A DNA stretch of 63,887 bases, filler included, from a bacterium (GTDB lineage Bacteria; JACRDZ01; JAQUKH01): assembly GCA_028719205.1 (NCBI GenBank). It is 3 parts of 3 records of this genome, joined end to end, with 100 filler letters (N's around TTAATTAATTAA, not from the genome) between each part and the next. Parts side by side here need not be neighbours in the genome. Positions count along the whole stretch, not along the records: positions 49,876 to 63,887 come from JAQUKH010000048.1; 2 more parts are not named here. The stretch is one strand, 5' to 3'. Position 1 is the first letter of the stretch. Each line of letters opens with the position of its first letter. The notes beneath the pieces were generated by a model. That model searched no databases, was not told where the DNA came from, and worked only from the letters and a program-made list of their open reading frames with translations. Of this stretch, positions 6,884 through 63,887 are shown piece by piece. A program made the position numbers and the translations under genes.

Positions 6884-6937
6884 ACCCTGAAATACGAAGT
6901 TCGCTTTTTGGGGGAAATTTGTCATTTTGAGGATTTT

Positions 6938-8248
6938 ATGCTGGATAATATACTGCCTGAATACCAGAAATATTTAATTTTAAATAAGCTGGTTCCTGAA
7001 AAAAATATTCAGTTTTACGCCTTATGGGTGAGTAAATTTTTGTCATTTTCAAACAGGAATGATAATATTGTGTTTGAAAATAGAATGAATAAGTTTTTAG
7101 AGTTATTATCCGGCGATGAGGCAATAAAAGACTGGCAGATAGCGCAAGCAGAAACGGCTTTGAATTTATATGTTAATAATTTTCTTAAAGGCAACAAATC
7201 GTTAATCGATCCGGATTGTAACAGCAAAAACAGCCGATTAGACGGCTTTAATTCTATAATAAATAAATTACGCGAATTAATACGTTTAAAACATTATTCA
7301 TACAGCACGGAGCAGACTTATATTGAATGGGCAAAAAAATTTCATAAATATATTTTAGAGTCAAAAGAAAATAAATTTGAAATAGATAAATTATCTTCAA
7401 ATGATGTCCAGAATTATTTAAGCCATCTGGCATTGAAGCAAAGGGTGTCATCTTCAACACAGAACCAGGCGTTTAACGCCCTGGTTTTTTTATTTAAAAA
7501 TGTTTTGGGAATTGAACTTAACGGCCTTAATGATACAGTCAGGGCAAAACGGGGGCAAAAACTTCCTGTTGTACTGACGGTTGAAGAAGTACAGGAACTG
7601 TTTAAACATATAGAAGGCAAAAACCTTCTTATTATTCAATTATTATATGGTTCAGGTCTAAGACTTATGGAACTGGCACGATTAAGGGTAAAGGATATTG
7701 ATTTTAATTCTAATTTGTTATTTGTGCGAAGCGGCAAAGGAGATAAAGACAGGTCGACTATTCTTCCTGAATTTGTTAAAAAAGATTTAAAATTATATCT
7801 GGATAAAGTTAAAACGCTTCATGATAAAGATATTAAAGAGGGATATGGAGAAGTTTATCTCCCAAACGCGTTAGAGCGGAAATACCCAAATGCCTCAAAA
7901 GACTGGGGATGGCAGTGTGTTTTCCCGGCAGAAAGGCTTTCGGTTGATCCGCGAAGCGGCAAAATCAGAAGGCACCATATAAGCGATAAAACTATACAGA
8001 ATATTGTCAGGGAAGGCGTAAGAAAAGCGGGTATAATAAAAAGCGCGACTGTGCATACTCTGAGGCATAGTTTTGCGACGCATCTTCTGATGAACGGTGT
8101 TAATATAAGAGAAGTGCAGGACCTGCTGGGGCATAAGAAACTTGAAACAACGATGATTTATACTCATGTTATGCGGGACATGTCAAACGCGCCGAAGAGC
8201 CCGCTGGATATGTTGTATGGAAAAATGAATGAGGAAAATAAAATTTAA
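6938..8248 (+). CDS. intI: Integron integrase, long N-terminal form
   Basis: Tyrosine recombinase residues (GLRLME, GKGDK, HTLRHSF, GHK, TTMIY) plus the IntI-specific insertion VYLPNALERKYP...WQCVFPA...VDPRSG..RRHH. Likely start ATG 6938 after GAGG. Confidence 0.96.
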   Translation: MLDNILPEYQKYLILNKLVPEKNIQFYALWVSKFLSFSNRNDNIVFENRMNKFLELLSGDEAIKDWQIAQAETALNLYVNNFLKGNKSLIDPDCNSKNSRLDGFNSIINKLRELIRLKHYSYSTEQTYIEWAKKFHKYILESKENKFEIDKLSSNDVQNYLSHLALKQRVSSSTQNQAFNALVFLFKNVLGIELNGLNDTVRAKRGQKLPVVLTVEEVQELFKHIEGKNLLIIQLLYGSGLRLMELARLRVKDIDFNSNLLFVRSGKGDKDRSTILPEFVKKDLKLYLDKVKTLHDKDIKEGYGEVYLPNALERKYPNASKDWGWQCVFPAERLSVDPRSGKIRRHHISDKTIQNIVREGVRKAGIIKSATVHTLRHSFATHLLMNGVNIREVQDLLGHKKLETTMIYTHVMRDMSNAPKSPLDMLYGKMNEENKI

Positions 8249-36384: not shown

Positions 36385-36807
36385 ATGGTTTCACATCGTA
36401 TTGTCCTGATTTTTTCCAAAGATATAGTTGATAAACCTTATACTTATCATTTGGTTAAGGATTACAATCTGTTGGTCAATATACTTAGAGCAAAAATATC
36501 TCCTGAAGAAGAAGGCCTTTTAGTCCTGGAAGTTGAAGGTAAAAGAACTGATTTTGAAAACGGAATGAAATATTTAAAAGAATATGGCGTTAAAATATTA
36601 CCGCTTGTAAAAGAAATAAAACGTGATAAAGACCGCTGTTACAATTGCGGCGCATGCACTGCGGTATGTCCCAGCGGCGCGCTGCATATTAATAAAAGCA
36701 ACTGGTTTGTAGATTTTGATGAAAAAAAATGTGTTTTATGCGAGGCTTGTGTAAAAGGCTGCCCTACCAGATCAATAAAAATATTATTCCCGGACTTTGT
36801 GAATTAA
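36385..36807 (+). CDS. NIL domain plus 2x[4Fe-4S] ferredoxin
   Basis: NILRA motif and two CxxCxxCxxxCP motifs. Confidence 0.88.
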   Translation: MVSHRIVLIFSKDIVDKPYTYHLVKDYNLLVNILRAKISPEEEGLLVLEVEGKRTDFENGMKYLKEYGVKILPLVKEIKRDKDRCYNCGACTAVCPSGALHINKSNWFVDFDEKKCVLCEACVKGCPTRSIKILFPDFVN

Positions 36808-50049: not shown

Positions 50050-51444
50050 TTATTTTTTTGTTTCTAAACTACTCTCGCCTTTTTTAACTTCCTCGCTTAT
50101 TGTTTCTTCCGTTAATACGCGGGGAGTGACGAATACGTAGAGGTCGGTTCTTTCAATAGCGTCTTTTTTAGACCTGAAAAGATATCCCAGGAGAGGTATG
50201 TCACCCAACAAGGGAACTTTTTTTATTGTTTGAGTTTTTTTATTTTTGATCAGGCCGCCGATAACAATAGTTTTACCGTCTTTGACCTTAAGCTGGGTAT
50301 CCGCTTTGCGGGTAGAGACTATCGGCTTTTCATTTTGTCCGGACGGACCTGTTATCCAGCCGGTAATTTCGCTTACCTCCGGCACTATTTCCATAATAAC
50401 ATAACCTTCAGGGGTTATATGCGGGGTTACCGTAAGAGTTATTCCAACGTCCTGATCTGAATAACCGGTAATTTCCCAGCCGCCCCTTTGAATATTATAG
50501 GCATAGACAGGGATCGGAACAACCTCGCCGATCACGATCCTCGCCTCCTGATTATCCAATGTGGAAATGCTTGGGCTGGACAATACGTTAAAATCTGTTT
50601 TACCCTGCGTGGCTTGTAAAATCGCGGTAAAATTCGCGAAATCCAGAGCCCCAAAAGCAAATTGCCCGCTGTTTGAATAGGGGAATATTTTATCTTGAGG
50701 AAAACTTCCATCGCTAGGAGCCGGTGGGATCCCGACATTCATATTTTTGTTGGCCATTGGGAAAGTAGTAGGCACTTTTGAACCGGAAACTGCAGCCTGA
50801 ACATTCCAGTCTATTCCAAGGTTCTTATCCTGGCCTAAACCAACCTCAACAATTTTCGCCTCGATAAGCACCTGCGAAGAGGGAGTATCAAGCTGGATTA
50901 TTACATCTTCAATCTTTTTCAAATTGCCCGGCACATCGGTAACAACAAGGATCTTCGACCTGTCTTTAGTTCTTTCGCTTCCCACGCCGTTTCTTCTGAC
51001 CATAGTTTCAATGGACCCATATTGAGAGATCATCGCGCCTAAAGACGCTTTAATATTGGCGGCATCGACATGCTTTAATGTGAATACCCTGCTTTCGGTC
51101 TCTACCCCCGGCTGCCCCAATTTTATTATCCTGATAATATTATCTTTTTTTACATAATCATACCCGTTAACCCTTAATATTGAGGCAAGCGCGTCATCCA
51201 GCGTAACATTATTAAAACTTACGGTTACTTTACCTTTAATATCCGTCCCCGCTACAATATTTAACTGGAACTCCTCCGCGAGTATACGCAGGACATCGCT
51301 GATCTCCGCGTCAACAAAATCCATATTTGACAATTTTTTTTCGGATGAAGTATTTCCGCTGCCCGCGGTTTCAGAGAACGCGCGGCCAAAAGAAAAAATA
51401 CCGCAAACTAATAATATAGCGATAAAAAGTTTTTTATTTTTCAT
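50050..51444 (-). CDS. Secretin (PilQ/GspD family)
   Basis: N0 domain, QVLIEAKIVEV and KVPLLGDIPLLGYLF. Confidence 0.93.
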   Translation of the reverse strand: MKNKKLFIAILLVCGIFSFGRAFSETAGSGNTSSEKKLSNMDFVDAEISDVLRILAEEFQLNIVAGTDIKGKVTVSFNNVTLDDALASILRVNGYDYVKKDNIIRIIKLGQPGVETESRVFTLKHVDAANIKASLGAMISQYGSIETMVRRNGVGSERTKDRSKILVVTDVPGNLKKIEDVIIQLDTPSSQVLIEAKIVEVGLGQDKNLGIDWNVQAAVSGSKVPTTFPMANKNMNVGIPPAPSDGSFPQDKIFPYSNSGQFAFGALDFANFTAILQATQGKTDFNVLSSPSISTLDNQEARIVIGEVVPIPVYAYNIQRGGWEITGYSDQDVGITLTVTPHITPEGYVIMEIVPEVSEITGWITGPSGQNEKPIVSTRKADTQLKVKDGKTIVIGGLIKNKKTQTIKKVPLLGDIPLLGYLFRSKKDAIERTDLYVFVTPRVLTEETISEEVKKGESSLETKK

Positions 51445-51488: not shown

Positions 51489-51998
51489 TTAACGATTTTC
51501 ACCTTTTAACTCTATAGTATATTTTCTGCCGTTACTTAATAAAATTACCTTATTTTTTTCTATCCCGATTATTTTTCTAACACCCAAGGCATCCCCTTCC
51601 CGTAGTATCTTCCTGTCAAGGATCGCTGTCCTGCGGCCCTCTGAAAAAACTATACCGGAAAGAGTGATTTTGGAAATTTCTTCCTCATCGGCTTTTTGCG
51701 CCAGGGCCATTTCTTCCTGTCTTTTCTGTTCTTCCTGCCTTTCCTGATCCTCCCGCGCTTCCTTCTCCTGCTGTTTAGCCTGTTCCTCTGCCGCTATGGC
51801 ATTTGCCCTATCATCTAAATTTTCTTTAATCTCTTCTTTTGACTTTACTGCCGCCGGAGCGTTATTTTTTTCTAATGCCGTTTCGATCTCCATAGGAAGC
51901 CTGAACGGATCACGCCCTTTATTTTCCTGCGCGTATACGCCGGAATTTACTGTAAACATGGCGCAGACCAAAAATAGATAAATTAAATAAACCTTCAT
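51489..51998 (-). CDS. PilP/GspB-like alignment protein
   Basis: RDPF, LSGIV...A......LREGD; position between pilO and the secretin. Confidence 0.65.
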   Translation of the reverse strand: MKVYLIYLFLVCAMFTVNSGVYAQENKGRDPFRLPMEIETALEKNNAPAAVKSKEEIKENLDDRANAIAAEEQAKQQEKEAREDQERQEEQKRQEEMALAQKADEEEISKITLSGIVFSEGRRTAILDRKILREGDALGVRKIIGIEKNKVILLSNGRKYTIELKGENR

Positions 51999-52005
51999 AA
52001 ATTCC

Positions 52006-52533
52006 TCACAACATATAAATTACCGCCATCATTTCAACATTCAATTTAGGCGGCACAGTTTCATTATTTTTTACTTTAATTTCACTAATATCTATAACCT
52101 TGTCAAAATTTTTCAATTTTTTCAGATATTCCGCGATACCGTAAAATTCTCCGTTCAGCTTTATTTGTATCGGTATCTCGCTGTATTTATCCTGTTTAAC
52201 AGCCGGCATGGAATCAATCGAAACAAGATTGACACCTGTTTCGTTTGCTGTTTTTGTTAAATACTGCATTACAAGTTCAGTCTGGCCGGTTTTACAAAAT
52301 TTACCCTTTAACGAATCCAGTTCTTTATTCAATTCCTGCTCATTTTTCCCGCCTAATCTGTCTTCCAGCATTTTTTCCTCAAGAAAAACAGCACTGAGCT
52401 CCATTTTTGATCTGGAGATATTATCCAAAGCGGGCAGACAGAAAAATTTCAGCCCGATCGCCGCGGTTATTATGAAAATTATTACAGTGATCTTATTTTT
52501 ATCAGTTTTTGTTTTTGGAGTTTCCTGCTTCAT
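52006..52533 (-). CDS. pilO: PilO-like protein
   Basis: TM helix, coiled coil and Y.EIPIQIKLNG.F motif. Confidence 0.78.
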   Translation of the reverse strand: MKQETPKTKTDKNKITVIIFIITAAIGLKFFCLPALDNISRSKMELSAVFLEEKMLEDRLGGKNEQELNKELDSLKGKFCKTGQTELVMQYLTKTANETGVNLVSIDSMPAVKQDKYSEIPIQIKLNGEFYGIAEYLKKLKNFDKVIDISEIKVKNNETVPPKLNVEMMAVIYML

Positions 52534-54284
52534 TTCAATTCCATTGTTATATTAAAATTAGTTACATTTCGCCCTGAAAAATGTTCAATATTGCTTGTTG
52601 AAAGCAGAGACGCGTTTTTCAATAAAGATGAATTGCTTAAATTTGTCAAAAATCCGGTAACCAGCTGGTTTGAAACGGACCTTCCGGTTATATTAATCGC
52701 GCCTTTTTTATTCACTGATAACGTTATTATCCAAACGCCGTCAGGTATCAATCTCGATATTTCATCTAAAACACCTTTTCCCTGCCGTTCAGCATCCAAA
52801 TGTTTCAAAACATCTATTTCTTTAACCATATCAGCCATCGCGGTTAACTTCGAAAAACGGCCATTCTCCAAAATTATTTTTTGTTTATAACCTTTATCCA
52901 CATAAGACAATGCCATGTACGCGGTAAAAAAGAACAAGATAACCGCGGCGGCCGCGTACTTAATTAATCCGCCGCCCAGTTTAAAATTAAATGTAAATCT
53001 TTTTTTAGCGACTACTTTCGCTGAAAGTAAATTGATACCTTTATCTTCGCCTAAAACCGCCCCCGCGGCAACAACAAATTGAGTATCCAGCCCGCAGTTA
53101 TTTATATACGGCGCATAAACCTTTACCGCCATATTCAGTTTTTCGCTTAAGAATTTATCCAACCCGTTAAGCTTCGCGCCCCCGCCGCTTATAAATATAT
53201 TTTTAGCCTTTCCGCCGACACTCATCGAAAAATAATCAAAGGACCGTTCTATTTCAAGCGAGATCCTCTCCAGCACCGGCCTGATAATAGCAAACTCCCG
53301 CGCGTTTACACTCATCAGATCCTGTTTATTCTTTTTTAATTCTTCGGCCTCTTTAATATTGATCCTCAGGTCCTGTGAAAGAATAGCAGTAATACTGTTC
53401 CCGCCTATTGAAACCTGCCTGTTAAAGAGAAGGGACTGTCCTTTTACTATGCTTATATTAGTCTTGCCCGCCCCGATATCAATAAGCGCGGTTAATTCTT
53501 CAGGCCCTGCTTTCTCCGATTTGCCGAATACCTCCAATAAAGCAAACGGAGAAACATTAACCTTAACAGGTTTAAGCCCTGCTTTACGGATAGACGAAAG
53601 ATACGCCTGGAACTTTTTCTCCTCAGCGGCAGCCAGGATCATCTCTTCTTTTTTAGCCCCTTTATCTATAGTTTCCCTTAACACGACAAAATCTAAAATA
53701 ATATCTTTAATATTTGAAGGAATATATTTCTTTGCTTCCCATACAACCGTATTTTTGAGTTCGTCTTCAGTCATCATTGGAAGCCTGAAATGGTGGACAA
53801 AAACAAAATCACCGGAAAAAACACACCTGGCTTTTTTACATTCAGGTTTATTTTCTTTAATTATCTTCTCAAGGCCTTTGATGATCAGTTGATATTTTTC
53901 CGCGTCCGGCGTTTCAAACGGAATATCATATACCGCCGTCTCTATTTTGCCTTTTTTCACCCAAACCGCTTTTATTGAACTGCTGCCGATATCCAGCCCC
54001 AAAACGCCTTTTGTGCTCTCAATATCAAATTTACCCCCGGACTCTTTGTTGTATCCTGTTTCCAGAGAAGCTACTTTTCTAAACGTTTTTTTTAGAACGG
54101 AAGAAGGGTTACTTTCGGGCCCGCTCTTTTCATCCCCGCCAAAAATAGAAGCAACATCTTTTGTAAGGCCTGTATTCTTCTGAGGCTTAACCTCTTCAGT
54201 TATTACATCTTTCGGCTCTTCTTTGACAATATCTCCAAAGATGGAGGATATTTCCTTATTAAGCCCCGTATTTTTGTCTGACAC
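52530..54284 (-). CDS. PilM-PilN fusion with N-terminal extension
   Basis: GLDIGSSSIK, IDIGAG.T and SGGGA (actin-like PilM); INLL, TM helix and IPDGVWI (PilN). Confidence 0.88.
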   Translation of the reverse strand: MSDKNTGLNKEISSIFGDIVKEEPKDVITEEVKPQKNTGLTKDVASIFGGDEKSGPESNPSSVLKKTFRKVASLETGYNKESGGKFDIESTKGVLGLDIGSSSIKAVWVKKGKIETAVYDIPFETPDAEKYQLIIKGLEKIIKENKPECKKARCVFSGDFVFVHHFRLPMMTEDELKNTVVWEAKKYIPSNIKDIILDFVVLRETIDKGAKKEEMILAAAEEKKFQAYLSSIRKAGLKPVKVNVSPFALLEVFGKSEKAGPEELTALIDIGAGKTNISIVKGQSLLFNRQVSIGGNSITAILSQDLRINIKEAEELKKNKQDLMSVNAREFAIIRPVLERISLEIERSFDYFSMSVGGKAKNIFISGGGAKLNGLDKFLSEKLNMAVKVYAPYINNCGLDTQFVVAAGAVLGEDKGINLLSAKVVAKKRFTFNFKLGGGLIKYAAAAVILFFFTAYMALSYVDKGYKQKIILENGRFSKLTAMADMVKEIDVLKHLDAERQGKGVLDEISRLIPDGVWIITLSVNKKGAINITGRSVSNQLVTGFLTNLSNSSLLKNASLLSTSNIEHFSGRNVTNFNITMELK

Positions 54285-55038
54285 GACCTAATACCTCATC
54301 TGTAAGTTTAAAATAATCTTCGGTGCCTTTTGATTTAGCATCATAAATATTTATCGGCTTCCCCGCGCTTGGCGCCTCAGCCAGTTTAATTGTGTCATTT
54401 ATTATTGTTTCAAAAACCTTTTCCTTAAAATAACCCTTTATTCCGCTAAGCACATCTTTGCATAAATTCGTCCTCCCGTCATACAGTGTCGGAAGAATTC
54501 CTAAAATGTTAAGATTACTATTTAATCTTTTTGTGACGATATCCACCGTCTTAAATAATTGCTTCATTCCTTCCATCGGATAATATTGCATTTGAAGCGG
54601 TATAAGCAATTCCTGAGCCGCGGTCAGGGCGTTAACCGTTAAAAGGCTAAGTGACGGCGGGCAATCAATGATCATAAAATCATATTTCGGCGGCAATGTA
54701 TTCACACAGCCTTTAAATACACCTTCCCGCCCGATAGTATTTACCAGGTCAATTTCCACCCCTGAAAGGCTTAGAGTCGCCGGAGCGATATCCAGCCCGG
54801 CTACTTCCGTTTTACAGATAATTTCTTCAAGTTTAATTTCCTGATTAATAAGCACATTGTACATGGATCTTTCAATTTTATAAATATCAATTCCGACACC
54901 AAGGCTCGCGTGAGACTGGGGATCCATGTCTACCAATAAAATTTTATAGCCTTTGCTCGCGAGACATGAACTTAAATTAACGGATGTAGTTGTTTTCCCG
55001 CAGCCGCCTTTTTGATTACAAACAGCGATAGTTATCAT
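54259..55038 (-). CDS. ParA/Soj family ATPase
   Basis: NQKGGCGKTT, DMDPQ, IDCPPSL and LAEAPS.G. Confidence 0.93.
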   Translation of the reverse strand: MITIAVCNQKGGCGKTTTSVNLSSCLASKGYKILLVDMDPQSHASLGVGIDIYKIERSMYNVLINQEIKLEEIICKTEVAGLDIAPATLSLSGVEIDLVNTIGREGVFKGCVNTLPPKYDFMIIDCPPSLSLLTVNALTAAQELLIPLQMQYYPMEGMKQLFKTVDIVTKRLNSNLNILGILPTLYDGRTNLCKDVLSGIKGYFKEKVFETIINDTIKLAEAPSAGKPINIYDAKSKGTEDYFKLTDEVLGRVRQKYGA

Positions 55039-55048
55039 AATTACCTCA

Positions 55049-55447
55049 TTACCTCGTCATCCTTACCATTACTTTTCTGGTACTATTATTAACGGTACCG
55101 ACCGATGTTATTTCAATGTCGTCCTTGCCTCTATTACTCAAGGTTACCGTATAGGTTCCCGTGTATGGGACATCTCCCCCCGCTGAATAACTCAGGGTTT
55201 CATTTGTATAAAGGGAAGATACCGGTGTACTATCACTCCAGTCACTATCTGAATTAAGCGTATAAGCCGCCCTTTCAATCCCCGCTTCGGCGGTATATAT
55301 CGCCCTCTTCAAATCCCGTTCCGCGTAAGATATTTTAAAGTCTGTGGCCCGCAACACCATTACCGCGGTAGCCAAAAGGAACAGGCCGAACATTATCATC
55401 AAAACAAGAGAAACTATCGCGCCGTGTTCGTTACACCGCTTACTCAA
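55049..55447 (-). CDS. PilX-like minor pilin
   Basis: G|AIVSL hydrophobic N-terminus, A.Y.AEAGIE and ITSVG. Confidence 0.75.
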   Translation of the reverse strand: MSKRCNEHGAIVSLVLMIMFGLFLLATAVMVLRATDFKISYAERDLKRAIYTAEAGIERAAYTLNSDSDWSDSTPVSSLYTNETLSYSAGGDVPYTGTYTVTLSNRGKDDIEITSVGTVNNSTRKVMVRMTR

Positions 55448-56966
55448 AAATCTCCTCCCATTTATAAATATACGGCGCGGTGCTGGCGCCGCCGGTTAAA
55501 GCTGTGTCATAAGTAATTGTAACACTGTTAAGCTTAGGTGTTAAAGTACTGTCCAGAGTATTCAAATAAGCCTTGTATTGGAAGTATCGGCTGTTTGCCG
55601 CGTTTATATTATTCCCGGAACCGTCGGCTCCGTCCGGATCAGTAAAATAAGATGCACTCGTGCTATCGGGCCCGATATAATTTCCTGTTATAGGATTAGT
55701 ATTTCCCGACCTGACCTGAAATTTTATATCCGTGCTGTTATAAAGCGCCTCGTTCCAGTTGAATTTATTCCACCGCACAACCTGGGACGCATCCTTGACT
55801 GATGATTCATACACCCCTGAATCATAATAGGCCGTCTGCCGCTCCAGATATAAAATCACCGACCAGCCGTCGTTGCCTGATCCCCTGTATGCCACAAGAT
55901 AATTTGTCGCATCTATTCCTGATACATCCGGTTCATATCCGGTATTATCAAATTTAAACATGGTTCCCATTGTTACTGTCTTAGCAACCGTATCTACCGT
56001 TAAAATTACCGACCTGCCTGAATTTACAGGCCCGGTATATGTCAATAAATAATCCGCCGCGTCTATCTGTTCTAATGAATTGGCACTAATTGAGCCTGCT
56101 TCAAATATGAACGGTGCTCCTCTTGTTATGGTCCTTGCGGCCACATTAACTGTCAGGATCACAGCAGTACCGGCATTGCCCGAACCTTGATAAGCTACCA
56201 GATAATTTGCCGCGTCTACCTTAATTATTGCCGGAACCAAACCATTATTTGTATCATATTCGAACGGAGTACCCCTTGTTATCGTTCTGGTTGCCGTATT
56301 TACCGTCAGAATTACTGCCCAGCCGTCACTACCAGGGCCTCCATAAACTACAAGATAATTTGTCGCATCTATTTGGGCTATAGCCGGAGATACACCATTA
56401 CTTGCGTCAAATTCAAACGGCGTACCCATTGTTATTGCCTTCGTAGCCGGATTTTCTCTCAACATTACAGCCCAGCCGTCACTGCCTGGACCCGTATAGG
56501 CTACAAGATAATTTGTCGCATCTATCCTAGCTATTGCCGGAGACACACCATTACTTGCGTCAAATTCAAACGAAAAGCTTGTCGTTACGGTTCCTGCGCC
56601 TGTATTTACGGTTAAAACCTTGGACCAGCCGTCACTGCCCGGCCCTGTATAAACCAAAAGAAAGTCATCTGAATCAATCTGTGCCAAGCCGGTTCCCGAT
56701 GCCGCGCTCGCGTCAAATGTAAAAATCGTCCCGCGGGTAACTGACTTTGAACCAGTATTCGCGGTCAAAATTACCGCATTGCCGCAGTTCGCCGGCCCTA
56801 CATAGGCCGAAAGATAGTTAGTCGAATCTATCCGCGCCAAAGCCGGCTCCCTTCCTAAATTAATATCATAATCAAACGGCGTGCCTTTATTAATAGTTGT
56901 TGCGGCAGTAAAAACTCCTTTACTAAATCCGCAAATAAAAAATAGTAAAATAATTTTTTTTATCAT
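55440..56966 (-). CDS. Secreted protein with seven 51-aa repeats (putative pilus adhesin)
   Basis: Signal peptide; repeats GTPFEFDA.NG..PAIA.IDATNYLVAY.GPGSDGWAVILTVN with 153-nt periodicity. Confidence 0.75.
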   Translation of the reverse strand: MIKKIILLFFICGFSKGVFTAATTINKGTPFDYDINLGREPALARIDSTNYLSAYVGPANCGNAVILTANTGSKSVTRGTIFTFDASAASGTGLAQIDSDDFLLVYTGPGSDGWSKVLTVNTGAGTVTTSFSFEFDASNGVSPAIARIDATNYLVAYTGPGSDGWAVMLRENPATKAITMGTPFEFDASNGVSPAIAQIDATNYLVVYGGPGSDGWAVILTVNTATRTITRGTPFEYDTNNGLVPAIIKVDAANYLVAYQGSGNAGTAVILTVNVAARTITRGAPFIFEAGSISANSLEQIDAADYLLTYTGPVNSGRSVILTVDTVAKTVTMGTMFKFDNTGYEPDVSGIDATNYLVAYRGSGNDGWSVILYLERQTAYYDSGVYESSVKDASQVVRWNKFNWNEALYNSTDIKFQVRSGNTNPITGNYIGPDSTSASYFTDPDGADGSGNNINAANSRYFQYKAYLNTLDSTLTPKLNSVTITYDTALTGGASTAPYIYKWEEIFE

Positions 56967-58912
56967 CTCTCGCTCAATTCTACATGATCTGTAGAATAAC
57001 TTGTTGAGTTATATGTTCCTGAATCAAAAAGATTTTTAGTATAATCGCTGAATCCCGATATGTTTCTTATTTCCGCGGTTGAAAGCGCGCTGTTATAAAT
57101 AACAACCTCGTCTATTCTTCCTTTAAAATAGCTATTTCCAGCTCCGCCATCGTGAAAACGGGTATTGCCGTTCATGGCGATGCGAACATTCCCGCTGTGC
57201 GAATAAACCCGGCCTCCGCTCCCGTTGCCGAACTCATTTCCAAAAATATACGCCTTAAACTTGTTCGCCTCAACGATAGGATTCGCGTTATTCAATAACA
57301 AAGTAACATGATACCATGTATCCGGCCTGACATCCGTGCTGTGCCAGGTCCCTGTCCAGTCGGGCGAATAATCACCTATATCCCAGCCCCCGGCATATAA
57401 TTTATCCGACAATAAATAAATATTAAAACCTCTTGCACTATCTCCTTCTTCATACAGCACCTGCCTTGCCGTTGTACTGTCCGCCCTGAACCATAAGGCA
57501 ATCGTCCTGTTTGAATAAGGCCCGCCTGTGTTTATTAAACTTGAATTCGGGATATCAACATAATCATCTATTCCGTCAAAAATTCCGGCCCTGCCAAGCT
57601 TGCCGGCTATTGTCGTCGTCGGCCCGTTCTTTGAAGCCCCGTTAATACCATTGCCTGAATTATCCAATACATCCTCGGGCAGCCCATTCCAATTGTTTTC
57701 ATCCATATGCCATAACGCGGTAATTGTAGTATCGGATGATGCAGGAGCCCTTGAAACTTCTCTTCTCAAAGTAATAATGTTCTCCAAATTAAATGTCTCA
57801 CCGCTTTTTTCCAGTCCCATTAATATTTTCACTGATTTTATCGTGTTTCGCTTCGTCTGGGTATCCGTCCCTCCCGGCATTGTTAACAAATTATAACCGG
57901 TATCATAATAACTTATCTGAAAGGTTGTCGTGTAGCCGCCCTCTAACACAAAGCTTCTGTCATTAACAGCCAAAGTTAATTTATCGCCCGCCCCGGTCCA
58001 TGAAATTTTTGATCTCCTGACATTATTTGAAACCCGGGCCTCATCTATAATCCCGGCAAAAGGATATTGCGTGCTATCCTGATCACGGCCTATATACAGG
58101 TTATTCGAAGACACTGCTATAAAATCGCTATTATCAGCTGTGCCTTCTATAACACCGTTAATATAAACCTTAAGTTCCTCCGTTCCGCCTTCATCCTTAT
58201 TATAGCTAAGGGCTGTATGCGCCCACGAGGTTCCGTTTCTGATGACCTGTGAAGAACTTATCGCGTCGTGCCACGCCCCTGAATAATAAATGCTTCCGAC
58301 TAATTTATTTGAAGAGTTGAGATAAAGCCGGTACGCGGCGGTTTTATAAAATATCGCGCCGGTCGCGTTCCCGGGATCAGGCCGTATCCATGCCTCTAAT
58401 TCCAGTTTGGATGTAATATTCAAGGTGGCGCCATTACCACAGTCAACATAATCATTTGAGCCGTCAAAATTAAGCGCGGTACAGTCTTCGCCATTTGTCG
58501 TCCAGGCCGGTGTCGAGCCCACAGGCCCCAAACTCACGTTATTATTCCCCGCGGTATCAACGGCGTTCATCCCCGAACCGTCATTAAAATGCCAGAGACT
58601 TACAGTATAACTATCAACCGGCGGGCTATTTAAAGGAAAGGTTCCAAACTCCATCGCGGTATCCAGCGCCACTGTTATATTGCTTGCCTTTTTTAATTCT
58701 CTCTCGATCCTGTTCATAGCGAAACCCGCCTCCTGTTGAACAAGAGATTTGGGGTTTTCCACTTCCCAGACTTTTAATCCTGAAATAAATACTCCGTATA
58801 TGGCGGTAAAAATAATCGCGGATAGAGCTATGGTCAATAATAATTCTAAAACCGTTATTCCCTTATTAAAGTTGCTAATCCGCAAGAGTTTATCACTCCT
58901 TTCTCCTGCCAA
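56963..58912 (-). CDS. Minor pilin (PilW/GspJ-like) with two LamG domains
   Basis: KG|ITVLE prepilin motif; FDGSNDYV...FAGIIDEARV and FDGIDDYV...FKGRIDEV. Confidence 0.8.
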   Translation of the reverse strand: MAGERSDKLLRISNFNKGITVLELLLTIALSAIIFTAIYGVFISGLKVWEVENPKSLVQQEAGFAMNRIERELKKASNITVALDTAMEFGTFPLNSPPVDSYTVSLWHFNDGSGMNAVDTAGNNNVSLGPVGSTPAWTTNGEDCTALNFDGSNDYVDCGNGATLNITSKLELEAWIRPDPGNATGAIFYKTAAYRLYLNSSNKLVGSIYYSGAWHDAISSSQVIRNGTSWAHTALSYNKDEGGTEELKVYINGVIEGTADNSDFIAVSSNNLYIGRDQDSTQYPFAGIIDEARVSNNVRRSKISWTGAGDKLTLAVNDRSFVLEGGYTTTFQISYYDTGYNLLTMPGGTDTQTKRNTIKSVKILMGLEKSGETFNLENIITLRREVSRAPASSDTTITALWHMDENNWNGLPEDVLDNSGNGINGASKNGPTTTIAGKLGRAGIFDGIDDYVDIPNSSLINTGGPYSNRTIALWFRADSTTARQVLYEEGDSARGFNIYLLSDKLYAGGWDIGDYSPDWTGTWHSTDVRPDTWYHVTLLLNNANPIVEANKFKAYIFGNEFGNGSGGRVYSHSGNVRIAMNGNTRFHDGGAGNSYFKGRIDEVVIYNSALSTAEIRNISGFSDYTKNLFDSGTYNSTSYSTDHVELSER

Positions 58913-59415
58913 AACACTGTCACCTGAACTTTTTTGTATGTATTTATTCCTTCCGCCCAGCTGACTTGAGTAATCCTGTCCACGCGCCGGGGAGGATTCA
59001 TTTTAGACAATGATACAGCCGCACTGGAATATGAGTTTGATTCAGTAAGGTGAAGATTGCCGGAAAAAAAATTATCTGTATTTACATCGTTCAGATCCGG
59101 CAAAAAACTATCCCCGGAATTACTGCCTGTCCCTACGCTGATTTTAGTCCCGGTCAAAACGAGATTTTTTACATCTTCCATTCTTTGCTGGGCCAAATTT
59201 AGAGCGATGGATAAATTTTCCGCCTGCCTTCCGGCTCTGGATGCGGAATTAAAAATATCTATTATAGCAATCAGAGCTATACCAGTCACAGCCACAGCAA
59301 TTAATACTTCAAGCAGGGTAAACCCCGCCAGAGATTTTTTTTCTCTAACGGGGACCCTTTTAAAAATACTAAATGCTTTACACCTCAAATTGATCACTCT
59401 AATAACTTTCAGCAT
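58855..59415 (-). CDS. PilV/GspI-like minor pilin (start uncertain)
   Basis: AG|FTLLE, ALNLAQQRME and KKVQVTVFW. Confidence 0.8.
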   Translation of the reverse strand: MLKVIRVINLRCKAFSIFKRVPVREKKSLAGFTLLEVLIAVAVTGIALIAIIDIFNSASRAGRQAENLSIALNLAQQRMEDVKNLVLTGTKISVGTGSNSGDSFLPDLNDVNTDNFFSGNLHLTESNSYSSAAVSLSKMNPPRRVDRITQVSWAEGINTYKKVQVTVFWQEKGVINSCGLATLIRE

Positions 59416-59487: not shown

Positions 59488-59940
59488 TTACGGATTATGG
59501 TTACCTGTCTTTACATTGCTCACCCAGATATTATCTGTTCCCGCTCCGCTGGCTGTCACCGCATCGGCGCCAAGCGTTATCGTTCCGGGTGCTCCATCAG
59601 GCCCGACGCTGTAAATAACATAATAACTGCTCGTTGTCGTATCCAAATCGTATGAATATTTTGTTGTACCGAAAGGATCGTTCGGAACCTCATCAATAAT
59701 CCTGTTTGTCTGATTCACTAAAAGTGTATCCCATCCGGCTTTTGCAGGGTACGCGTTATTATTATTTTTATATATCTCAACAGCCGTTTTAAGAGACCTC
59801 AACTCTGACATTGCCTGCTTTTTCTTCGCGTCAGTTTGGATCCCGGAAAACCTCGGAACAAGAATAGCCACCAAAATTCCAATAACAGCGATTACAACTA
59901 AGATTTCCAACAAAGTAAAACCTTTTTCTTTTTGCGACAT
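59488..59940 (-). CDS. Major pilin/pseudopilin (GspG-like), copy 1
   Basis: KG|FTLLE, YP, DPFG..Y.Y and YSVGPDG; SD AAGGAGG. Confidence 0.88.
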   Translation of the reverse strand: MSQKEKGFTLLEILVVIAVIGILVAILVPRFSGIQTDAKKKQAMSELRSLKTAVEIYKNNNNAYPAKAGWDTLLVNQTNRIIDEVPNDPFGTTKYSYDLDTTTSSYYVIYSVGPDGAPGTITLGADAVTASGAGTDNIWVSNVKTGNHNP

Positions 59941-59960
59941 TTTTGTCACCTCCTTTAAAA

Positions 59961-60045: not shown

Positions 60046-60498
60046 TTATGGGTTATGGGTACCTGTCTTACAATTGCTCACCCAGATATTATCCGCTCCT
60101 GCTCCGCTGGCTGTCACCGCATCAGATCCAACCGTTATCGTACCAACGGATCCATCAACTCCAACGCTGTAAATAACATAACACCCGCTCGTTGCAGTAT
60201 CCAAATCGTATGAATATTTTGTTGTACCGAAAGGATCGTTCGGGACCTCATCAATAACCCTGCTCGTCTCCGCTAATAAAAGTGTATCCCATCCAGCCGC
60301 CGCAGGATACGCATTATTATTATTTTTATACATTTCTACAGCCATTTTAAGAGACTTCAAATCTGCCATTGCCTGTTTTTTCTTCGCGTCAGTTTGAATA
60401 CCGGAAAATCTCGGAACAAGAATAGCCACCAAAATTCCGATAACAGCAATTACAACTAAGATTTCCAACAAAGTAAAACCTTTTTCTTTTTGCGACAT
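60046..60498 (-). CDS. Major pilin/pseudopilin (GspG-like), copy 2
   Basis: Same length and identical N-terminal helix as copy 1; differences lie in the globular part. Confidence 0.88.
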   Translation of the reverse strand: MSQKEKGFTLLEILVVIAVIGILVAILVPRFSGIQTDAKKKQAMADLKSLKMAVEMYKNNNNAYPAAAGWDTLLLAETSRVIDEVPNDPFGTTKYSYDLDTATSGCYVIYSVGVDGSVGTITVGSDAVTASGAGADNIWVSNCKTGTHNP

Positions 60499-60518
60499 TT
60501 TTGTCATCTCCTTTAAAA

Positions 60519-61739
60519 TTATTTAATTACTTTCATCATATCAAAGATCGGCAAAAATAGCGACAGTGCTATAAACCCGATCACAACTGCCATAAAACTG
60601 ATTATTAAAGGTTCTATCATCGTGGTTAGATTCTTGACCGCGTAATCCACCTGCCGGTCATAATCATCAGCCACACGCCCCAGTGCTTGATCCAATCTGC
60701 CTGTTTCCTCGCCGATACTGACCATCTGCGAAACTATCGCAGGAAACTCGCCGGTTTTCTCTATCGCCTTCGTAACTTTTTCACCTTCCCTGATCGATTT
60801 GATAATATCATTTACCGTATTCTCGATTATCACGTTATCCAGATTTTCCCGGGAAACCTCCAGAGATTTCAATATATCTAATCCGCTTTCTAACATTATT
60901 TCCATTGACCTGCTGAACCTGGAAACAGATATTTTACGGAATAGTTTTCCAAAAACAGGAAGTTTAAGCTTTAACCTGTCAAGATTGTATCTTCCAATTT
61001 CCGTCCTAATATAAAATTTAGCAGACGCTATGAATATTGCAATACCTATCAGGACAAAATGCCAATCGTCTTTAATAAAACGTCCCAGCACATATATAAC
61101 CTTCGTCGGGCCGGGCAGTTCCACCCCTGCCTTCGTGAAAACCGCGATAAATTTTGGAAAAACAAATATAACCAGAAAAAGGATCACCATCATAGCCACG
61201 GTTATTAATATTATCGGATAACTCAGCGCAGACTTTACCTTTGCGCCAAGGTCAACCTCTTTTTCCAAAAATATCGCCATTCTCTCGAAAACATCATCTA
61301 AACGGCCCGTCTCTTCTCCAACCTTTACAGTGCTGACAAATAAATTATTAAATACTTCAGGATATTTTGATAACGCGTCTGAGATCGATACCCCTTCTTC
61401 TATATCGGTTTGTATTTTTTTCAGTATATTTTTAAATTTTTTATTTTCTATCTGGTCGACAAGAACAGAAAACGCCCGTGTTATTGTTAAACCCGACCGC
61501 AGCATGGAGGATAACTGCCTGGCAAAATATGCCGTCTCGGATTTTTTTATTGATGATAGATCTCTAAGCAAAATGTTTTTAAAAAAAAATTCCTTTTCCG
61601 TTTCCACCCGTTCAATACTTGAAATAAAATGTCCCTGATCAGTAAGGCGTTTTAATATTTCATCTTCATCGGAGGCATCTATCGTTCCTTCAACCGGCTC
61701 TCCGGATTCGTCTCTTCCTTGATATTTATATTTTGGCAT
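60519..61739 (-). CDS. pilC: Type IV pilus/T2SS inner membrane platform protein (PilC/GspF)
   Basis: RQLSSML.SG, GEETG.L twice, A..YP and IEP. Start set at ATG 61739. Confidence 0.92.
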   Translation of the reverse strand: MPKYKYQGRDESGEPVEGTIDASDEDEILKRLTDQGHFISSIERVETEKEFFFKNILLRDLSSIKKSETAYFARQLSSMLRSGLTITRAFSVLVDQIENKKFKNILKKIQTDIEEGVSISDALSKYPEVFNNLFVSTVKVGEETGRLDDVFERMAIFLEKEVDLGAKVKSALSYPIILITVAMMVILFLVIFVFPKFIAVFTKAGVELPGPTKVIYVLGRFIKDDWHFVLIGIAIFIASAKFYIRTEIGRYNLDRLKLKLPVFGKLFRKISVSRFSRSMEIMLESGLDILKSLEVSRENLDNVIIENTVNDIIKSIREGEKVTKAIEKTGEFPAIVSQMVSIGEETGRLDQALGRVADDYDRQVDYAVKNLTTMIEPLIISFMAVVIGFIALSLFLPIFDMMKVIK

Positions 61740-61742
61740 AAT

Positions 61743-61822
61743 TTTCAAGCTTTCAGCAATCAGCATTCAGCTTTCAGCTAATTATTTTCTTGTTTTTGCT
61801 GACAACTGATAGCTGATAGCTA
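61743..61822. repeat. Inverted heptamer-repeat element, copy 2
   Basis: TTTCAGCAATCAGCATTCAGCTTTCAGCTAATTATT...GCTGACAACTGATAGCTGATAGCT. Confidence 0.72.
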
Positions 61823-63508
61823 TCTTATCACTTCATCCTGCGTCACTCTTATAAGTTCTTCAATTGTAGTTTTTCCTTCCGTAACTAAATATAGTCCTTC
61901 CTCCCGCAAACTAAGCATTCCCATTTTTCTGGCCTCTTTAGTAATAACCTCAGGCGCCGCCTTCGACACGATCAGTGCTTTTATTTCATCATTAGGCACC
62001 ATAATTTCATAGATACCGAGCCTTCCCTTATAACCTGTATAACTGCATTGTTTACAGCCTTTGCCTCTGTGAAAAACCGGGAGATTCTTTTTATCCGGGA
62101 ATAATCCTTTTATTATATCTTCTCTGGGTTTATATTCTTCTTTGCAATTCGGGCATATAAGCCGCACAAGCCGCTGAGCTATCGCTCCGATCAACGAGGC
62201 GGATACAAGAAAAGGCTCAACCCCCATATCAATAAGCCTGGTTGCCGTGCTCGGGGCATCGTTAGTATGAAGCGTGCTTAATACGAGATGCCCGGTAAGA
62301 GCAGCCTGAATAGCTATTTCCGCTGTTTCCAGATCCCTTATTTCACCCACCATAATTACGTCCGGATCCTGCCTTAATATGGACCTTAAACCTGCGGCAA
62401 AAGTCCAGCCCGCTTTTGGATTGATCTGCGACTGGTTTAATATATTCATCTGGTATTCCACGGGATCCTCAAGTGTTATTATATTTCTTTCAAGGGTATT
62501 TATTTCCTGCAGAGCGGCATACAAGGTTGTTGTCTTTCCGCTTCCTGTAGGCCCCGTTACAAGCATTATCCCATAAGGCTGTTTTATTATATTATTAAAA
62601 AGATCAAATTCTTTAGATGTAAATCCCAGTTCCTTAATGCCATACATCACTCCTGTCTTTCTGAGTAGTCTTATTACTATTTTCTCGCCTAAAATAACAG
62701 GATATGACGACACTCTTAGATCTATTTTTTCACCTTCATAAGTAAACTCAATATGTCCATCCTGCGCGATACGTTTTTCGGCGATATTCATACCCGCCAA
62801 TACCTTTATTCTCGAGACAATAACCGGCTGAAGACGCGTCGGCAGCTGCAGAACTTCATGCAGAACACCGTCAATGCGATAACGAACCCTTAAAACATTC
62901 TGGTTGGGTTCAATATGAATATCCGAAGCCTTATCCTTGACCGCCTGCATGATCATCAAATTTACCGCTTTAACTACCGGTACCTCTTCAATCGCTTCTA
63001 TCCCCTTTTTTCCGGTTCTTTTAATTTCAATCTCCAATCCCGCGCCTATATCATCCACTGTTTTTGCTATAGCCTCTGAAATTTTATAGCTCTGTAGAAT
63101 GGCATTCATAATATCAGTCTCGCCGGAAACCACCACCTCTACAGTTTTCCCTGTTTCGTTGTATATCTTATCAATGGCCGATATATCCAGAGGGTCCGCC
63201 ATCGCGACCGTCAGGGTATCGGCGATTTTAAACAAAGGGATCAGTTTGCATTTCCTCGCCGTATCTTCCGGTATTAATTTTATAACCTCCGGATCGATCG
63301 CGTAATCCGTCAGATCCATATAGGGCACATTCAAGGCATCCGCGCGCGTCCGGGCAATATCTTTTTCAGTAACAAAGCCCAGGTTCTCCAGTGTCTTTTC
63401 CAAAGGCAAATTTTTCCGCTTTGATTCTTCCTTTGCCTTGTCGATCGCGTCTTGAGTAATTAAATTCCGGCTTAACAATAATTCAATTATATCTATTTTT
63501 TGAGGCAT
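61820..63508 (-). CDS. pilB: Assembly ATPase (PilB/GspE)
   Basis: ASDIHIEP, GPTGSGKTT, RQDPDVIMVGEIRD, TLHTN and two CxxC. Confidence 0.93.
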   Translation of the reverse strand: MPQKIDIIELLLSRNLITQDAIDKAKEESKRKNLPLEKTLENLGFVTEKDIARTRADALNVPYMDLTDYAIDPEVIKLIPEDTARKCKLIPLFKIADTLTVAMADPLDISAIDKIYNETGKTVEVVVSGETDIMNAILQSYKISEAIAKTVDDIGAGLEIEIKRTGKKGIEAIEEVPVVKAVNLMIMQAVKDKASDIHIEPNQNVLRVRYRIDGVLHEVLQLPTRLQPVIVSRIKVLAGMNIAEKRIAQDGHIEFTYEGEKIDLRVSSYPVILGEKIVIRLLRKTGVMYGIKELGFTSKEFDLFNNIIKQPYGIMLVTGPTGSGKTTTLYAALQEINTLERNIITLEDPVEYQMNILNQSQINPKAGWTFAAGLRSILRQDPDVIMVGEIRDLETAEIAIQAALTGHLVLSTLHTNDAPSTATRLIDMGVEPFLVSASLIGAIAQRLVRLICPNCKEEYKPREDIIKGLFPDKKNLPVFHRGKGCKQCSYTGYKGRLGIYEIMVPNDEIKALIVSKAAPEVITKEARKMGMLSLREEGLYLVTEGKTTIEELIRVTQDEVIR

Positions 63509-63528: not shown

Positions 63529-63887
63529 TTAATTATTCAATAATTTTTTTATTCTTTGAAGCAGATCCTTTGAGTCAAACGGTTTGGTAACATAATCATC
63601 AGCACCGACTGATTTTCCCATTTCTTTATCAGAATCCTGCACACGCGCGGAAAATAAAATTATAGGGATTTTTTTGTATTTATCATCGAATTTAAGCAAC
63701 CTGCAGACTTTGTAACCGTCCAGTTTCGGAAGCATCAGATCCAAAACTATCAAATCCGGATTTTCACTTTTAGCTTTTTCCAAACCCTCCTGCCCGTCGC
63801 CGGCGGTAACGACCTCATAATTATTTGCCTCCAGCCTTGCTTTCAGAACATCAACCAGTTCAGTTTCATCATCGACTATTAATATCT
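63529..63887 (-). CDS. Single-domain response regulator, 5'-truncated by window edge
   Basis: Frame is open to the edge: ILIVDDE...LDLMLP.LDG...KPF. Confidence 0.9.
   Translation of the reverse strand, partial: ILIVDDETELVDVLKARLEANNYEVVTAGDGQEGLEKAKSENPDLIVLDLMLPKLDGYKVCRLLKFDDKYKKIPIILFSARVQDSDKEMGKSVGADDYVTKPFDSKDLLQRIKKLLNN

Follow-up and report, generated by a model that had tools for sequence, protein, structure and literature searches.

A Soj-type ParA encoded in a pilus gene cluster beside a PilM that carries two ParB-like peptides

To our knowledge, how bacteria control the siting and number of their type IV pili and of their type II secretion machines is largely an open matter outside a few model species, and the answers known to us are polar landmarks, peptidoglycan-binding secretins and, for Tad pili only, TadZ. 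We analyzed a stretch of DNA of 63,887 nucleotides (nt) from the bacterial genome assembly GCA_028719205.1, referred to here as the window, in which the gene for a ParA/Soj-type ATPase lies inside a cluster of pilus genes and overlaps the start of a gene for a PilM-PilN fusion by 26 nt (54259-54284). No match to the ParB_N family was found among 13 proteins of the cluster (E ≤ 0.01) or among 35 further open reading frames (ORFs) of the window (E ≤ 1e-5), which raises the question of what partner a ParA might have in such a place. The answer that we favor, with a probability of roughly 0.6, is that the head of the PilM protein would be a flexible tail with two tandem ParA-binding peptides that mimic that of ParB, and that the ParA encoded immediately upstream would be its dedicated partner. 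Read in this way, the locus and its relatives point to another solution to the siting problem, namely a dedicated Soj-type ParA addressed by a peptide of ParB logic that is built into the machine. The features in question are as follows.

54259-55038, minus strand: ParA/Soj-type ATPase, 259 residues, ATG start (Pfam AAA_31 4.5e-61, CbiA)
54293-54297, minus strand: Shine-Dalgarno-like GAGGT, 8 nt upstream of the pilM GTG (sequence)
52530-54284, minus strand: PilM-PilN fusion, 584 residues, GTG start (PilM_2 1.7e-38, PilN 6.4e-16)
54006-54284, minus strand: PilM N-terminal extension, residues 1-93, outside the PilM fold
54234-54275, minus strand: motif copy 1, KNTGLNKEISSIFG, residues 4-17 (key positions L8, K10, I12, I15, F16)
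54180-54233, minus strand: acidic linker DIVKEEPKDVITEEVKPQ between both motif copies, 18 residues (6 acidic, 3 basic)
54138-54179, minus strand: motif copy 2, KNTGLTKDVASIFG, residues 36-49 (key positions L40, K42, V44, I47, F48)
53103-54005, minus strand: PilM actin-like ATPase-fold domain, residues 94-394 (Pfam, NCBIfam)
53025-53036, minus strand: INLL peptide in the PilM-PilN linker, residues 417-420 (sequence)
52899-52967, minus strand: PilN transmembrane segment, residues 440-462 (hydrophobic stretch judged by eye)
52539-52772, minus strand: periplasmic PilN domain, residues 505-582 (PF05137 6.4e-16)

The fusion protein exceeds the curated score for PilM (TIGR01175, 153 bits against a cut-off of 133) and has a PilN domain in the same chain (PF05137, 58.6 against 22.8); PilM-PilN fusions of about 520-560 residues are numerous among its homologs. 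Its PilM domain spans residues 96-394 by Pfam and 94-394 by TIGR01175, which leaves 93 residues ahead of PilM, while the median N-terminal extension of 81 other PilM ORFs is 0 residues. Two copies of a motif with the consensus KNTGL-x-K-[ED]-[IV]-[SA]-S-I-F-G are found in these 93 residues. When the extension alone (region 1-95) was used as a query, it matched only itself among 87 candidates of 321-1022 residues, and an exact-peptide scan of genome contigs with the whole PilM-PilN gave 75 pattern matches and no relative. We also defined a strict form of the motif, [GAS]L.K.[IVL]..[IVLF]F, and in a six-frame translation of the window, with 233 open segments of at least 60 codons, it occurs three times, in the two PilM copies and in one 74-codon antisense segment.

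The extension is very probably translated, judging by its open frame, the GAGGT site, the lack of an in-frame ATG and the protein-level conservation of the two copies. The only in-frame start codons before or at the PilM domain are GTG at codon 1, TTG at codon 95 and GTG at codon 109, and a stop lies 2 codons upstream of codon 1. A GAGGTA similar to the site ahead of pilM precedes the ATG of parA. When its letters are shuffled (mononucleotide shuffles), the 94-codon extension remains open in just 28 of 20000, and stops interrupt four of the other five frames over this stretch. The two copies are identical at 10 of 14 residues, 3 of them encoded by the same codon and 7 by different synonymous codons (nucleotide identity 28/42), which indicates selection on the peptide and not on the DNA. 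The alternative is that PilM starts at the TTG of codon 95 and that the 280 nt after parA are a non-coding spacer that is open by chance. An AAAGG does stand 4-5 nt ahead of this TTG, and the closest homolog, P0002, is called without the extension. However, just one residue would stand ahead of GLDIG if translation began at codon 95, compared with several in the other PilM proteins inspected, and the rarity of an open frame, the seven synonymous differences and the presence of the same peptide at the head of equivalent genes in other phyla all argue against an untranslated extension, which we consider very improbable. These results bear out what the initial annotation of this DNA had described: an intact ParA that overlaps pilM by 26 nt with no parB nearby, which holds for the window; about 90 extra residues on PilM; a motif duplicated at residues 4-17 and 36-49; and a PilM start upstream of the repeats.

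P0002 is 73% identical to the fusion over 85% of the query (76% in alignment A4). The precomputed Pfam list also assigns a PilO domain to its 625-residue chain, and P0002 could be a PilM-N-O fusion or a read-through call. P0003, a metagenome PilM-PilN that is 41% identical, has similar motif-like strings by eye.

The resemblance to ParB, which the initial annotation had also claimed, can be set against a functionally mapped case. In Myxococcus xanthus, according to the accessible portion of PMC12462528, the motif by which ParB binds ParA is L-x-[R/K]-x-L-x-x-L-I, with a requirement for L11, L15, L18, I19 and the central R13, a position held by lysine in about half of ParBs. The same portion reports that R13 is read by the Y81/E82 region beside motif 2 of ParA and matters for ATPase stimulation more than for binding, that the two peptide sites of the ParA dimer lie face to face, and that linked peptides perform far better than single ones. 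Both copies in the window match all five mapped positions, as L-x-[KR]-x-h-x-x-h-h (h, hydrophobic) at residues 8-16 and 40-48, and read L8-N-K10-E-I12-S-S-I15-F16 and L40-T-K42-D-V44-A-S-I47-F48. The central lysine is present in both and in all 13 strict-motif proteins described below. Co-folding of a ParA dimer, 2 ATP, 2 Mg and PilM residues 1-60 (alignments A3 and A2) gave a score of 0.01 against a mark of 0.32 in a single run without controls, which speaks neither for nor against binding.

We also considered whether the motif might be a PilN-type ligand of PilM. This was ruled out, because the fusion has its own INLL, and the separate PilN proteins of relatives start with the related IDLLKGQG (MFTIDLLKGQG in several). 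We take the INLL of the fusion to be the usual PilN N-terminal peptide that is bound by PilM, and with it the PilM groove already has its own ligand.

The ParA of the window was examined as the candidate partner of these peptides. Its deviant Walker A (KGGCGKTT), motif 2 (VDMDPQSH) and Walker B (IIDCPP) are all intact, and K10, K15, D37, D39 and D125 are invariant in 18/18 pilus-cluster ParAs and invariant or nearly so across 44 other Soj-like proteins. The closest solved chain is M. xanthus ParA (8RAY, 2.3e-70), followed by Thermus thermophilus Soj (8.3e-53) and Helicobacter pylori Soj (9.1e-53), each with nearly full-length coverage. By its sequence, the protein is a Soj-type deviant Walker A ATPase. 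It scores 95.1 bits with the curated equivalog for partition ParA (NF041546 ParA_partition, cut-off 180) and lies far under every cut-off of the RepA, MinD and BcsQ models (minD_bact, 49.4 bits against 212.9). Likewise, CpaE_hom_Actino gives 20.2 bits against 154.45, over residues 3-42 only; the 259 residues have AAA_31/CbiA-type matches alone and no receiver-like domain of TadZ, and the C-terminus is LTDEVLGRVRQKYGA. In the position where a ParABS system has an adjacent cognate ParB with ParB_N/Srx and helix-turn-helix domains, the downstream gene here encodes PilM-PilN.

We mapped the peptide pocket by hand on the 8RAY alignment, where chain position plus 19 gives the M. xanthus number (anchors D58, A60 and N64). 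The six hydrophobic residues of the ParB pocket, V116, L150, L152, L155, L187 and L192, correspond to I96, L130, L132, V135, I167 and L172, so all six are kept as hydrophobic residues in the window ParA. Y81 corresponds to Y60, E82 to N61 and the DNA-binding R238 to K218. Across the 18 pilus-cluster ParAs in alignment A3, hydrophobic residues occupy five pocket positions throughout, the sixth, position 96, being variable; Y60 is conserved in 17/18, and the position for non-specific DNA binding, 218, is K or R in 17/18. Pocket position 167 is I in 16 and position 172 is F in 11 of these 18 ParAs; among 44 others, L stands at the two positions in 22 and 31, respectively. H43 (codon 54910-54912) stands at the catalytic-site N64 of M. 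xanthus ParA, which turns DPQGN into DPQxH. Histidine at this position is found in 18/18 pilus-cluster ParAs and in 6/44 other Soj-like proteins of the same alignment, and the DPQxH proteins may form a kinetic subclass.

Contigs of other DNA runs also touch this gene; no RNA run was found. At 80% likeness, contigs of four runs cover parts of parA and not 53932-54239, the motif region; 33/40 of the variant sites listed across parA are third codon positions. In contigs of two other metagenome runs, 8 nt are missing at 55043, within the 10 nt that separate parA from the last of the minor pilin genes.

We next turn to what follows such ParAs elsewhere. The window ParA belongs to the very large Soj-like family, with 56,589 representatives matched at E ≤ 0.001; the most similar of them is 57% identical, and the Walker A Cys or the DPQxH signature is common to 22 of the best 150. 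An alignment of twelve ParAs of this Cys/DPQxH type (A1) was used to collect loci from reference genomes, of which we took the best 80 of at least 577 relatives (600 pattern matches); these loci carry numbers with the prefix L. With a PilM profile made from 83 of 120 listed homologs, those shorter than 400 residues, a same-strand pilM was found in 15/80. Three loci (L001, L003, L006) have the order parA-pilM(N), as in the window, and twelve, nearly all titled Planctomycetota, have the order pilM-pilN-pilO-parA-X-secretin, where X is a protein of 220-370 residues with no Pfam family. X starts with KSGLHKEISSIFEG in L016, KLGLHKQISSIFDG in L036, KAGLHKEVSTIFDG in L014 and KAGLQKKIAFIFDG in L012, and the motif is followed by a proline-rich linker and then a hydrophobic segment. 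The C-terminal domain of X is weakly like the 169-residue GspB/GspC-like protein of the window (BLASTP to the X of L016, E 5e-4, a single comparison), and among its language-model neighbors unnamed Planctomycetota clusters come first and the GspC and GspB families lower in the ranking, which serves as a lead only. A motif protein follows parA with no pilM in the examined stretch in L017, L023, L024, L025, L047 and L049. A secretin gene lies directly behind X in 5/5 annotated motif-X loci (L016, L017, L023, L024, L025), and L024 and L025 also have a T2SSE-type ATPase. L017 has a second motif protein, GspM/PilO-like (T2SSM_b, 653-1675), which starts with KAGLQKKISSIFKG and follows a partial ParA.

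The association was counted with the strict motif within the first 40 residues, using other ORFs of at least 60 residues for comparison. It is present in 13/64 ORFs directly downstream of the related ParAs and in 1/3263 other ORFs, and this sole other ORF is L017:653-1675, itself behind a partial ParA. The broad pattern L-x-[KR]-x-h-x-x-h-h, again within the first 40 residues, is present in 30/64 downstream ORFs and 28/3263 others; its matches include true ParBs (LGKGLRAII) as well as the pilus class (LHKEISSIF). These counts suggest that whatever gene follows such a ParA starts with a ParB-type handle, of which the pilus clusters have their own flavor. The strict-motif loci examined are all pilus or secretin clusters and come from Planctomycetota, Omnitrophota and one metagenome-assembled genome (MAG) titled Aegiribacteria. 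Other downstream partners, each class with an N-terminal peptide of its own, are true ParB-like proteins in WOR-3 and Methanobacteriaceae (ALGKGLRAII, LGKGLDALI) and, in Omnitrophota, proteins of about 115 residues (KKTGLGKNPLAWI).

The peptide has three kinds of carrier: PilM (the window, L001, L003 and L006), the GspB/C-like X (Planctomycetota) and a GspM/PilO-like protein (L017). Where it is borne by PilM it is present in two copies in 4/4 cases, and where it is borne by X in one. The PilM heads of L001, L003 and L006 have two shorter copies about 15 residues apart (e.g., NIVKDIFD and RNVSPIFT in L003), which keep K/R-x-[IV]-x-x-h-F. The tandem arrangement on PilM fits the gain in avidity reported for linked ParB peptides.

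Several side observations concern these relatives. The proteins of about 115 residues that follow ParA in Omnitrophota and relatives (L005:6765-7109, L007:6752-7108, L008:909-1271, L020:6765-7118) start with KK[ST]GLG[KR][DN]PL[AS]WI and, from their sequences, look like a further, apparently unnamed class of small ParA partners. Two directly adjacent ParA genes are present in one pilus cluster at L016:5064-6774, and two ParA genes with one gene between them at L017:5-2601, each followed by its own motif protein (GspM/PilO-like and X-like). Partner-like strings (EDVKSFFAK, EEIKSLFVE, LKKIAGKF, DLIAKFI, DIKSFF) are present in N-terminal extensions of pilus-linked or closely related ParAs (L001:4437-5384, L003:4636-5622, L024:309-1190; P0122, P0129, P0172) and might be explained as a copy of the handle in cis that serves auto-regulation, as a membrane helix or as the product of over-extended gene calls; the window ParA has no such motif-like head. 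The ParAs of L056 (a MAG titled Bacilli) and L048 (Methanobrevibacter) are near-identical sisters at 99 with end branches of 0.017 and 0.0085, and their downstream proteins begin alike, which suggests a mis-binned contig or a recent transfer.

Does the motif follow ParA, or does it follow the pilus machinery? Two controls that start from PilM bear on this question. In the first control, 80 metagenome loci with 81 PilM ORFs of at most 34% identity, which do not include the contigs of P0002 and P0003, contained no ParA-like ORF and no strict motif, although the shortness of many of these contigs makes the comparison less telling for parA. A single one of these PilM ORFs has an extension of more than 40 residues, and it is without the motif. 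In the second, the phylum of L016 was represented by 151 genomes, 67 of them with a PilM at E ≤ 1e-20, and the best 40 places outside the L016 genome were examined with up to 8 kilobases (kb) on each side. A nearby parA (within 6 kb, same strand) was present at 1/40, L196, which also has the closest PilM (35% identity). There, an ORF starting with MKRKSGLQKKISSIFDG (GLQKKISSIF) begins 47 nt before the parA stop, so that the only parA locus of the 40 is also the only one with such a motif ORF. Of the other 39 loci, 38 lack any motif match; the remaining one contains an atypical one, GLFRRIWPFF, at a distance of 4.5 kb from pilM. These controls indicate that the motif follows ParA and not the pilus machinery as such. 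The co-occurrence with an adjacent parA, a test set beforehand, was found in Planctomycetota, Omnitrophota and the Aegiribacteria-titled MAG, and the motif was missing where parA was missing. The proposal that PilM itself is the ParA partner is supported for the window, whose peptides are on PilM, with the correction that the peptide is not a property of PilM as such and is carried by another machine subunit in most relatives.

The same data bear on the possibility that the motif is an amphipathic helix with some other task (it might bind the membrane, or dock to PilB, PilC or a further pilus protein) and that its adjacency to parA reflects shared operon history. The hydrophobic spacing of i, i+4, i+7 and i+8 is indeed that of a generic amphipathic helix, and the peptide profile gave no link to ParB. 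However, the motif is present in 1/1 parA-adjacent and at most one, atypical, of 39 other Planctomycetota pilM loci and in 0/81 other PilM ORFs, and it always heads the gene that begins at the parA stop, whatever protein that gene encodes. Moreover, X is already membrane-anchored and so has no need of a membrane helix, and the PilM groove has its INLL ligand. We regard this explanation as improbable and retain the reading of the peptides as ParA handles.

How might such handles work? The anatomy of the locus, the translation of the motif and the selection on it, its fit to ParB, the conserved pocket and the co-occurrence of motif and parA across several phyla are features of the sequences themselves, and from them we infer physical binding, ATPase stimulation, nucleoid binding and an outcome in positioning. 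In the proposed mechanism, the ATP-bound ParA dimer would have two pockets that face each other at the interface, each accommodating a single amphipathic helix with the pattern L-x-K-x-[IV]-x-x-I-F. The pocket would be filled by the hydrophobic side of the helix, and the central lysine would trigger ATP hydrolysis and release, as in ParB. The 18-residue acidic linker would let one PilM tail fill both pockets of one dimer, like the two tails of a closed ParB clamp. PilM makes up the cytoplasmic ring of the pilus machine, so that each machine would have many tails. Much as a ParB-parS complex or a carboxysome does, the machine would then act on ParA as a multivalent cargo, binding it and switching it off. 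The matrix for ParA would probably be the nucleoid, contacted through the basic K218 and neighboring residues, and the system would serve to place, space or license type IV pilus- or type II secretion system-like machines relative to the nucleoid. We are less sure of this system-level outcome: assembly sites might be spaced or licensed or, conversely, a fixed machine might capture ParA and the nucleoid.

Several observations weigh against the reading of PilM as a ParA-positioned cargo. An assembled, secretin-anchored pilus machine is fixed in the envelope, which is a poor fit with diffusion-ratchet transport. The histidine that replaces the catalytic-site Asn hints at unusual kinetics, perhaps with hydrolysis that is altered or slow. 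A profile of 21 peptides run against the sequences of the PDB matched no ParB and gave only a chance hit to GCN4 at E 0.6, so that the likeness to ParB is a five-position pattern and not detectable homology. P0002 is called from a Met at the PilM boundary, with no extension. The PilM copies of L001, L003 and L006 are degenerate, lacking the first hydrophobic residue, and do not satisfy the full pattern. In addition, a careful tree of the ParAs gives the window protein no supported sister, the window ParA and that of L024 being long unresolved branches, and all pilus-labeled ParAs form one clade in 0% of 200 bootstrap trees.

A quick tree had placed 21 pilus-labeled ParAs and five embedded rows in one group with a support of 83, and this apparent monophyly was not supported by the careful tree. 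In the latter (ultrafast bootstrap/SH-aLRT), a Planctomycetota pilus clade is supported at 100/99 and the L001/L003/L006 clade at 98/89, and in the best tree a branch at 57/24 sets the 26 rows apart from the others, by which a single origin is neither shown nor rejected. From this value and the 0% of bootstrap trees, a single dedicated lineage of pilus ParAs does not follow. The pilus labels are clustered on the tree (4 changes against a shuffled mean of 18.9, with 0/500 shuffles as low), which is not decisive, since relatedness alone gives such clustering. On the supporting side, a full-scoring ParB_N gene is present elsewhere in 5/5 related genomes, those of L001, L016, L015, L055 and L006. 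In the genomes of L006 and L001, which have the gene order of the window, this ParB lies beside its own ParA (adjacent in G005, one ORF off in G001) and has a classical head, LGKGLSALI or LGRGLDALI.

The immobility of the machine is one reason to weigh the opposite direction. Polar scaffolds capture chromosomal ParA in other bacteria, and a secretin-anchored type IV pilus machine, once built, does not move. The envelope-anchored machine might accordingly be a landmark that captures or sequesters ParA, and with it the nucleoid or the origin region, or ParA might serve as a hub for assembly or regulate the number of machines, as TadZ/CpaE or FlhG do, with ATP-driven transport playing little or no part. 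The histidine in 18/18 pilus-cluster ParAs could mean slow hydrolysis in keeping with such a role. The accessible portions of PMC11407121 and PMC6668835 give TadZ/CpaE as a precedent for a ParA/MinD protein that is a localization hub for a pilus machine, and that of PMC12462528 mentions ParA sequestration by pole-associated scaffolds. Against this, the lysine at the center, whose role in ParB is the triggering of hydrolysis and not binding, is retained by the two copies of the window and by all 13 strict-motif proteins, the Walker A, motif 2 Asp and Walker B of ParA are intact, and ParA is without the receiver-like domain of TadZ. We consider the reversed direction unlikely, and the preferred reading remains that of a ParA switched off by peptides on its cargo.

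How does this arrangement compare with described systems? As far as the accessible portion of PMC12462528 goes, the window shares with the ParABS system of M. xanthus a Soj-type ParA, a partner gene directly downstream, a partner N-terminal peptide with the same five-position pattern, a kept pocket and Y81 equivalent, and two linked peptides available per ParA dimer. In contrast to ParABS, the partner in the window has no ParB_N/Srx or helix-turn-helix domain, and neither parS nor a CTP clamp is present; the peptide is borne by a subunit of the pilus machine, where duplication in cis takes the place of pairing through dimerization; its last two hydrophobic residues are I-F in place of L-I; and the ParA has His at the catalytic-site Asn. 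TadZ/CpaE is likewise a ParA/MinD-superfamily protein encoded inside a type IV filament cluster and needed to place or assemble the Tad machine, according to the accessible portions of PMC11407121 and PMC6668835, which describe no ParB-like activating peptide on a Tad component. TadZ differs from the window protein in its N-terminal receiver-like domain, atypical Walker A, place on the FleN/MinD side and occurrence in Tad systems, whereas the window has a plain 259-residue Soj-type ParA in a PilB/PilC/PilMNO/secretin cluster. PomX/PomY-PomZ, McdB-McdA, TlpT-PpfA and ParP-ParC are likewise cases of ATPase-activating partners that are not ParB and that have a short basic N-terminal peptide, for which the accessible portion of the PomX paper (PMC7993993) gives a general rule. 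In those systems, however, the cargo is a cytoplasmic body or array and the peptide is merely basic, whereas in the window the cargo would be an envelope-spanning pilus or secretion machine, the peptide is on a structural subunit of that cargo and is close to the ParB pattern, and a handle of this type has moved between subunits across lineages.

For secretion machines and pili, the accessible portion of a 2024 review of ParA/MinD cargos names only TadZ/CpaE, BcsQ and VirC1 (PMC11407121), and that of a survey of type IV filaments mentions only TadZ (PMC6668835). The initial annotation did not recognize the arrangement as described, and in full-text literature outside subscription journals and supplements we came across no paper in which an activating peptide connects ParA with PilM, a PilMNOPQ-type pilus or a type II secretion system. 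This suggests that the principle of a ParA with a partner peptide is known and that the cargo class and the portable ParB-like handle are new. We lean slightly toward a broader proposal, in which Planctomycetota, Omnitrophota and neighboring uncultured lineages would share a widespread, undescribed class of ParA cargo: a Soj-type ParA wired to type IV pilus- or type II secretion system-like machines by a portable ParB-mimic peptide that has hopped between at least three subunits (PilM, GspM/PilO-like and GspB/C-like) and has been duplicated in cis in the lineage of the window.

If this is true, the nucleoid would, via ParA, dictate where or how many trans-envelope filaments are built, envelope-spanning PilMNOPQ-type nanomachines would join the list of ParA cargos, and the ParB peptide would be a modular "ParA handle" open to any cargo. 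For work on ParA/MinD proteins, the same handle of about 10 residues on unrelated carriers, once as a tandem pair, offers a natural experiment, and the tandem pair bears directly on the recent model of two face-to-face pockets and avidity. The motif could also be used as a search key for further hidden ParA clients.

The remaining genes of the cluster form, with parA and pilM, one long minus-strand run from 63529-63885 down to 50050-51444, as determined from the ORF list, Pfam and NCBIfam; the window as a whole has a G+C content of 36.5%.

63529-63885, minus strand: response regulator (ORF with Pfam/NCBIfam annotation)
61820-63508, minus strand: PilB/MshE-type assembly ATPase with MshEN domain (T2SSE 6.6e-136, MshEN 3.9e-20)
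60519-61766, minus strand: PilC/GspF platform protein (T2SSF 1.4e-61)
60046-60507, minus strand: GspG-type major (pseudo)pilin, 153 residues (paralog of 59488-59949, judged from sequence)
59488-59949, minus strand: GspG-type major (pseudo)pilin, 153 residues (T2SSG and N_methyl matches)
58855-59415, minus strand: minor-pilin-like protein, 186 residues (N_methyl match)
56963-58912, minus strand: minor-pilin-like protein, 649 residues, with two laminin-G/concanavalin-like domains (Laminin_G_3; pilin-like by hydrophobic N-terminus only)
55440-56966, minus strand: minor-pilin-like protein, 508 residues (pilin-like by hydrophobic N-terminal segment only)
55049-55447, minus strand: minor-pilin-like protein, 132 residues (pilin-like by hydrophobic N-terminal segment only)
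52006-52533, minus strand: PilO/GspM-like protein, 175 residues (PilO 8.2e-14, T2SSM_b 1.1e-7)
51489-51998, minus strand: GspB/GspC-like periplasmic protein, 169 residues (NCBIfam GspB 1.7e-7, weak and below cut-off)
50050-51444, minus strand: secretin of the PilQ/GspD type (Secretin 3.7e-51)

The placement of parA between minor pilin genes and pilM, as first proposed, is backed by N_methyl or T2SSG matches for 58855-59415 and 59488-59949, while the other pilin genes are assigned by their hydrophobic N-termini only. The 508-residue minor-pilin-like protein has internal repeats (IDATNYLVAYTGPGSDGW and similar) and matches no Pfam family, and the 169-residue GspB/GspC-like protein has a signal or transmembrane segment at its very start. 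The PriA encoded in the window shares 79-82% identity with proteins of unclassified "bacterium" MAGs and, over full length, 45-49% with Candidatus Omnitrophota proteins, by which the source is probably an uncultured relative of Omnitrophota. Elsewhere in the window, its left end has an ORF with a HepT-like toxin domain (470-886), an IS110-family transposase (2408-3424) and a tyrosine integrase (6908-8248), a group that may mark the border of a mobile element. At 36804-38915, a 703-residue protein combines NHL/beta-propeller repeats with multiple paired CXXCH heme motifs.

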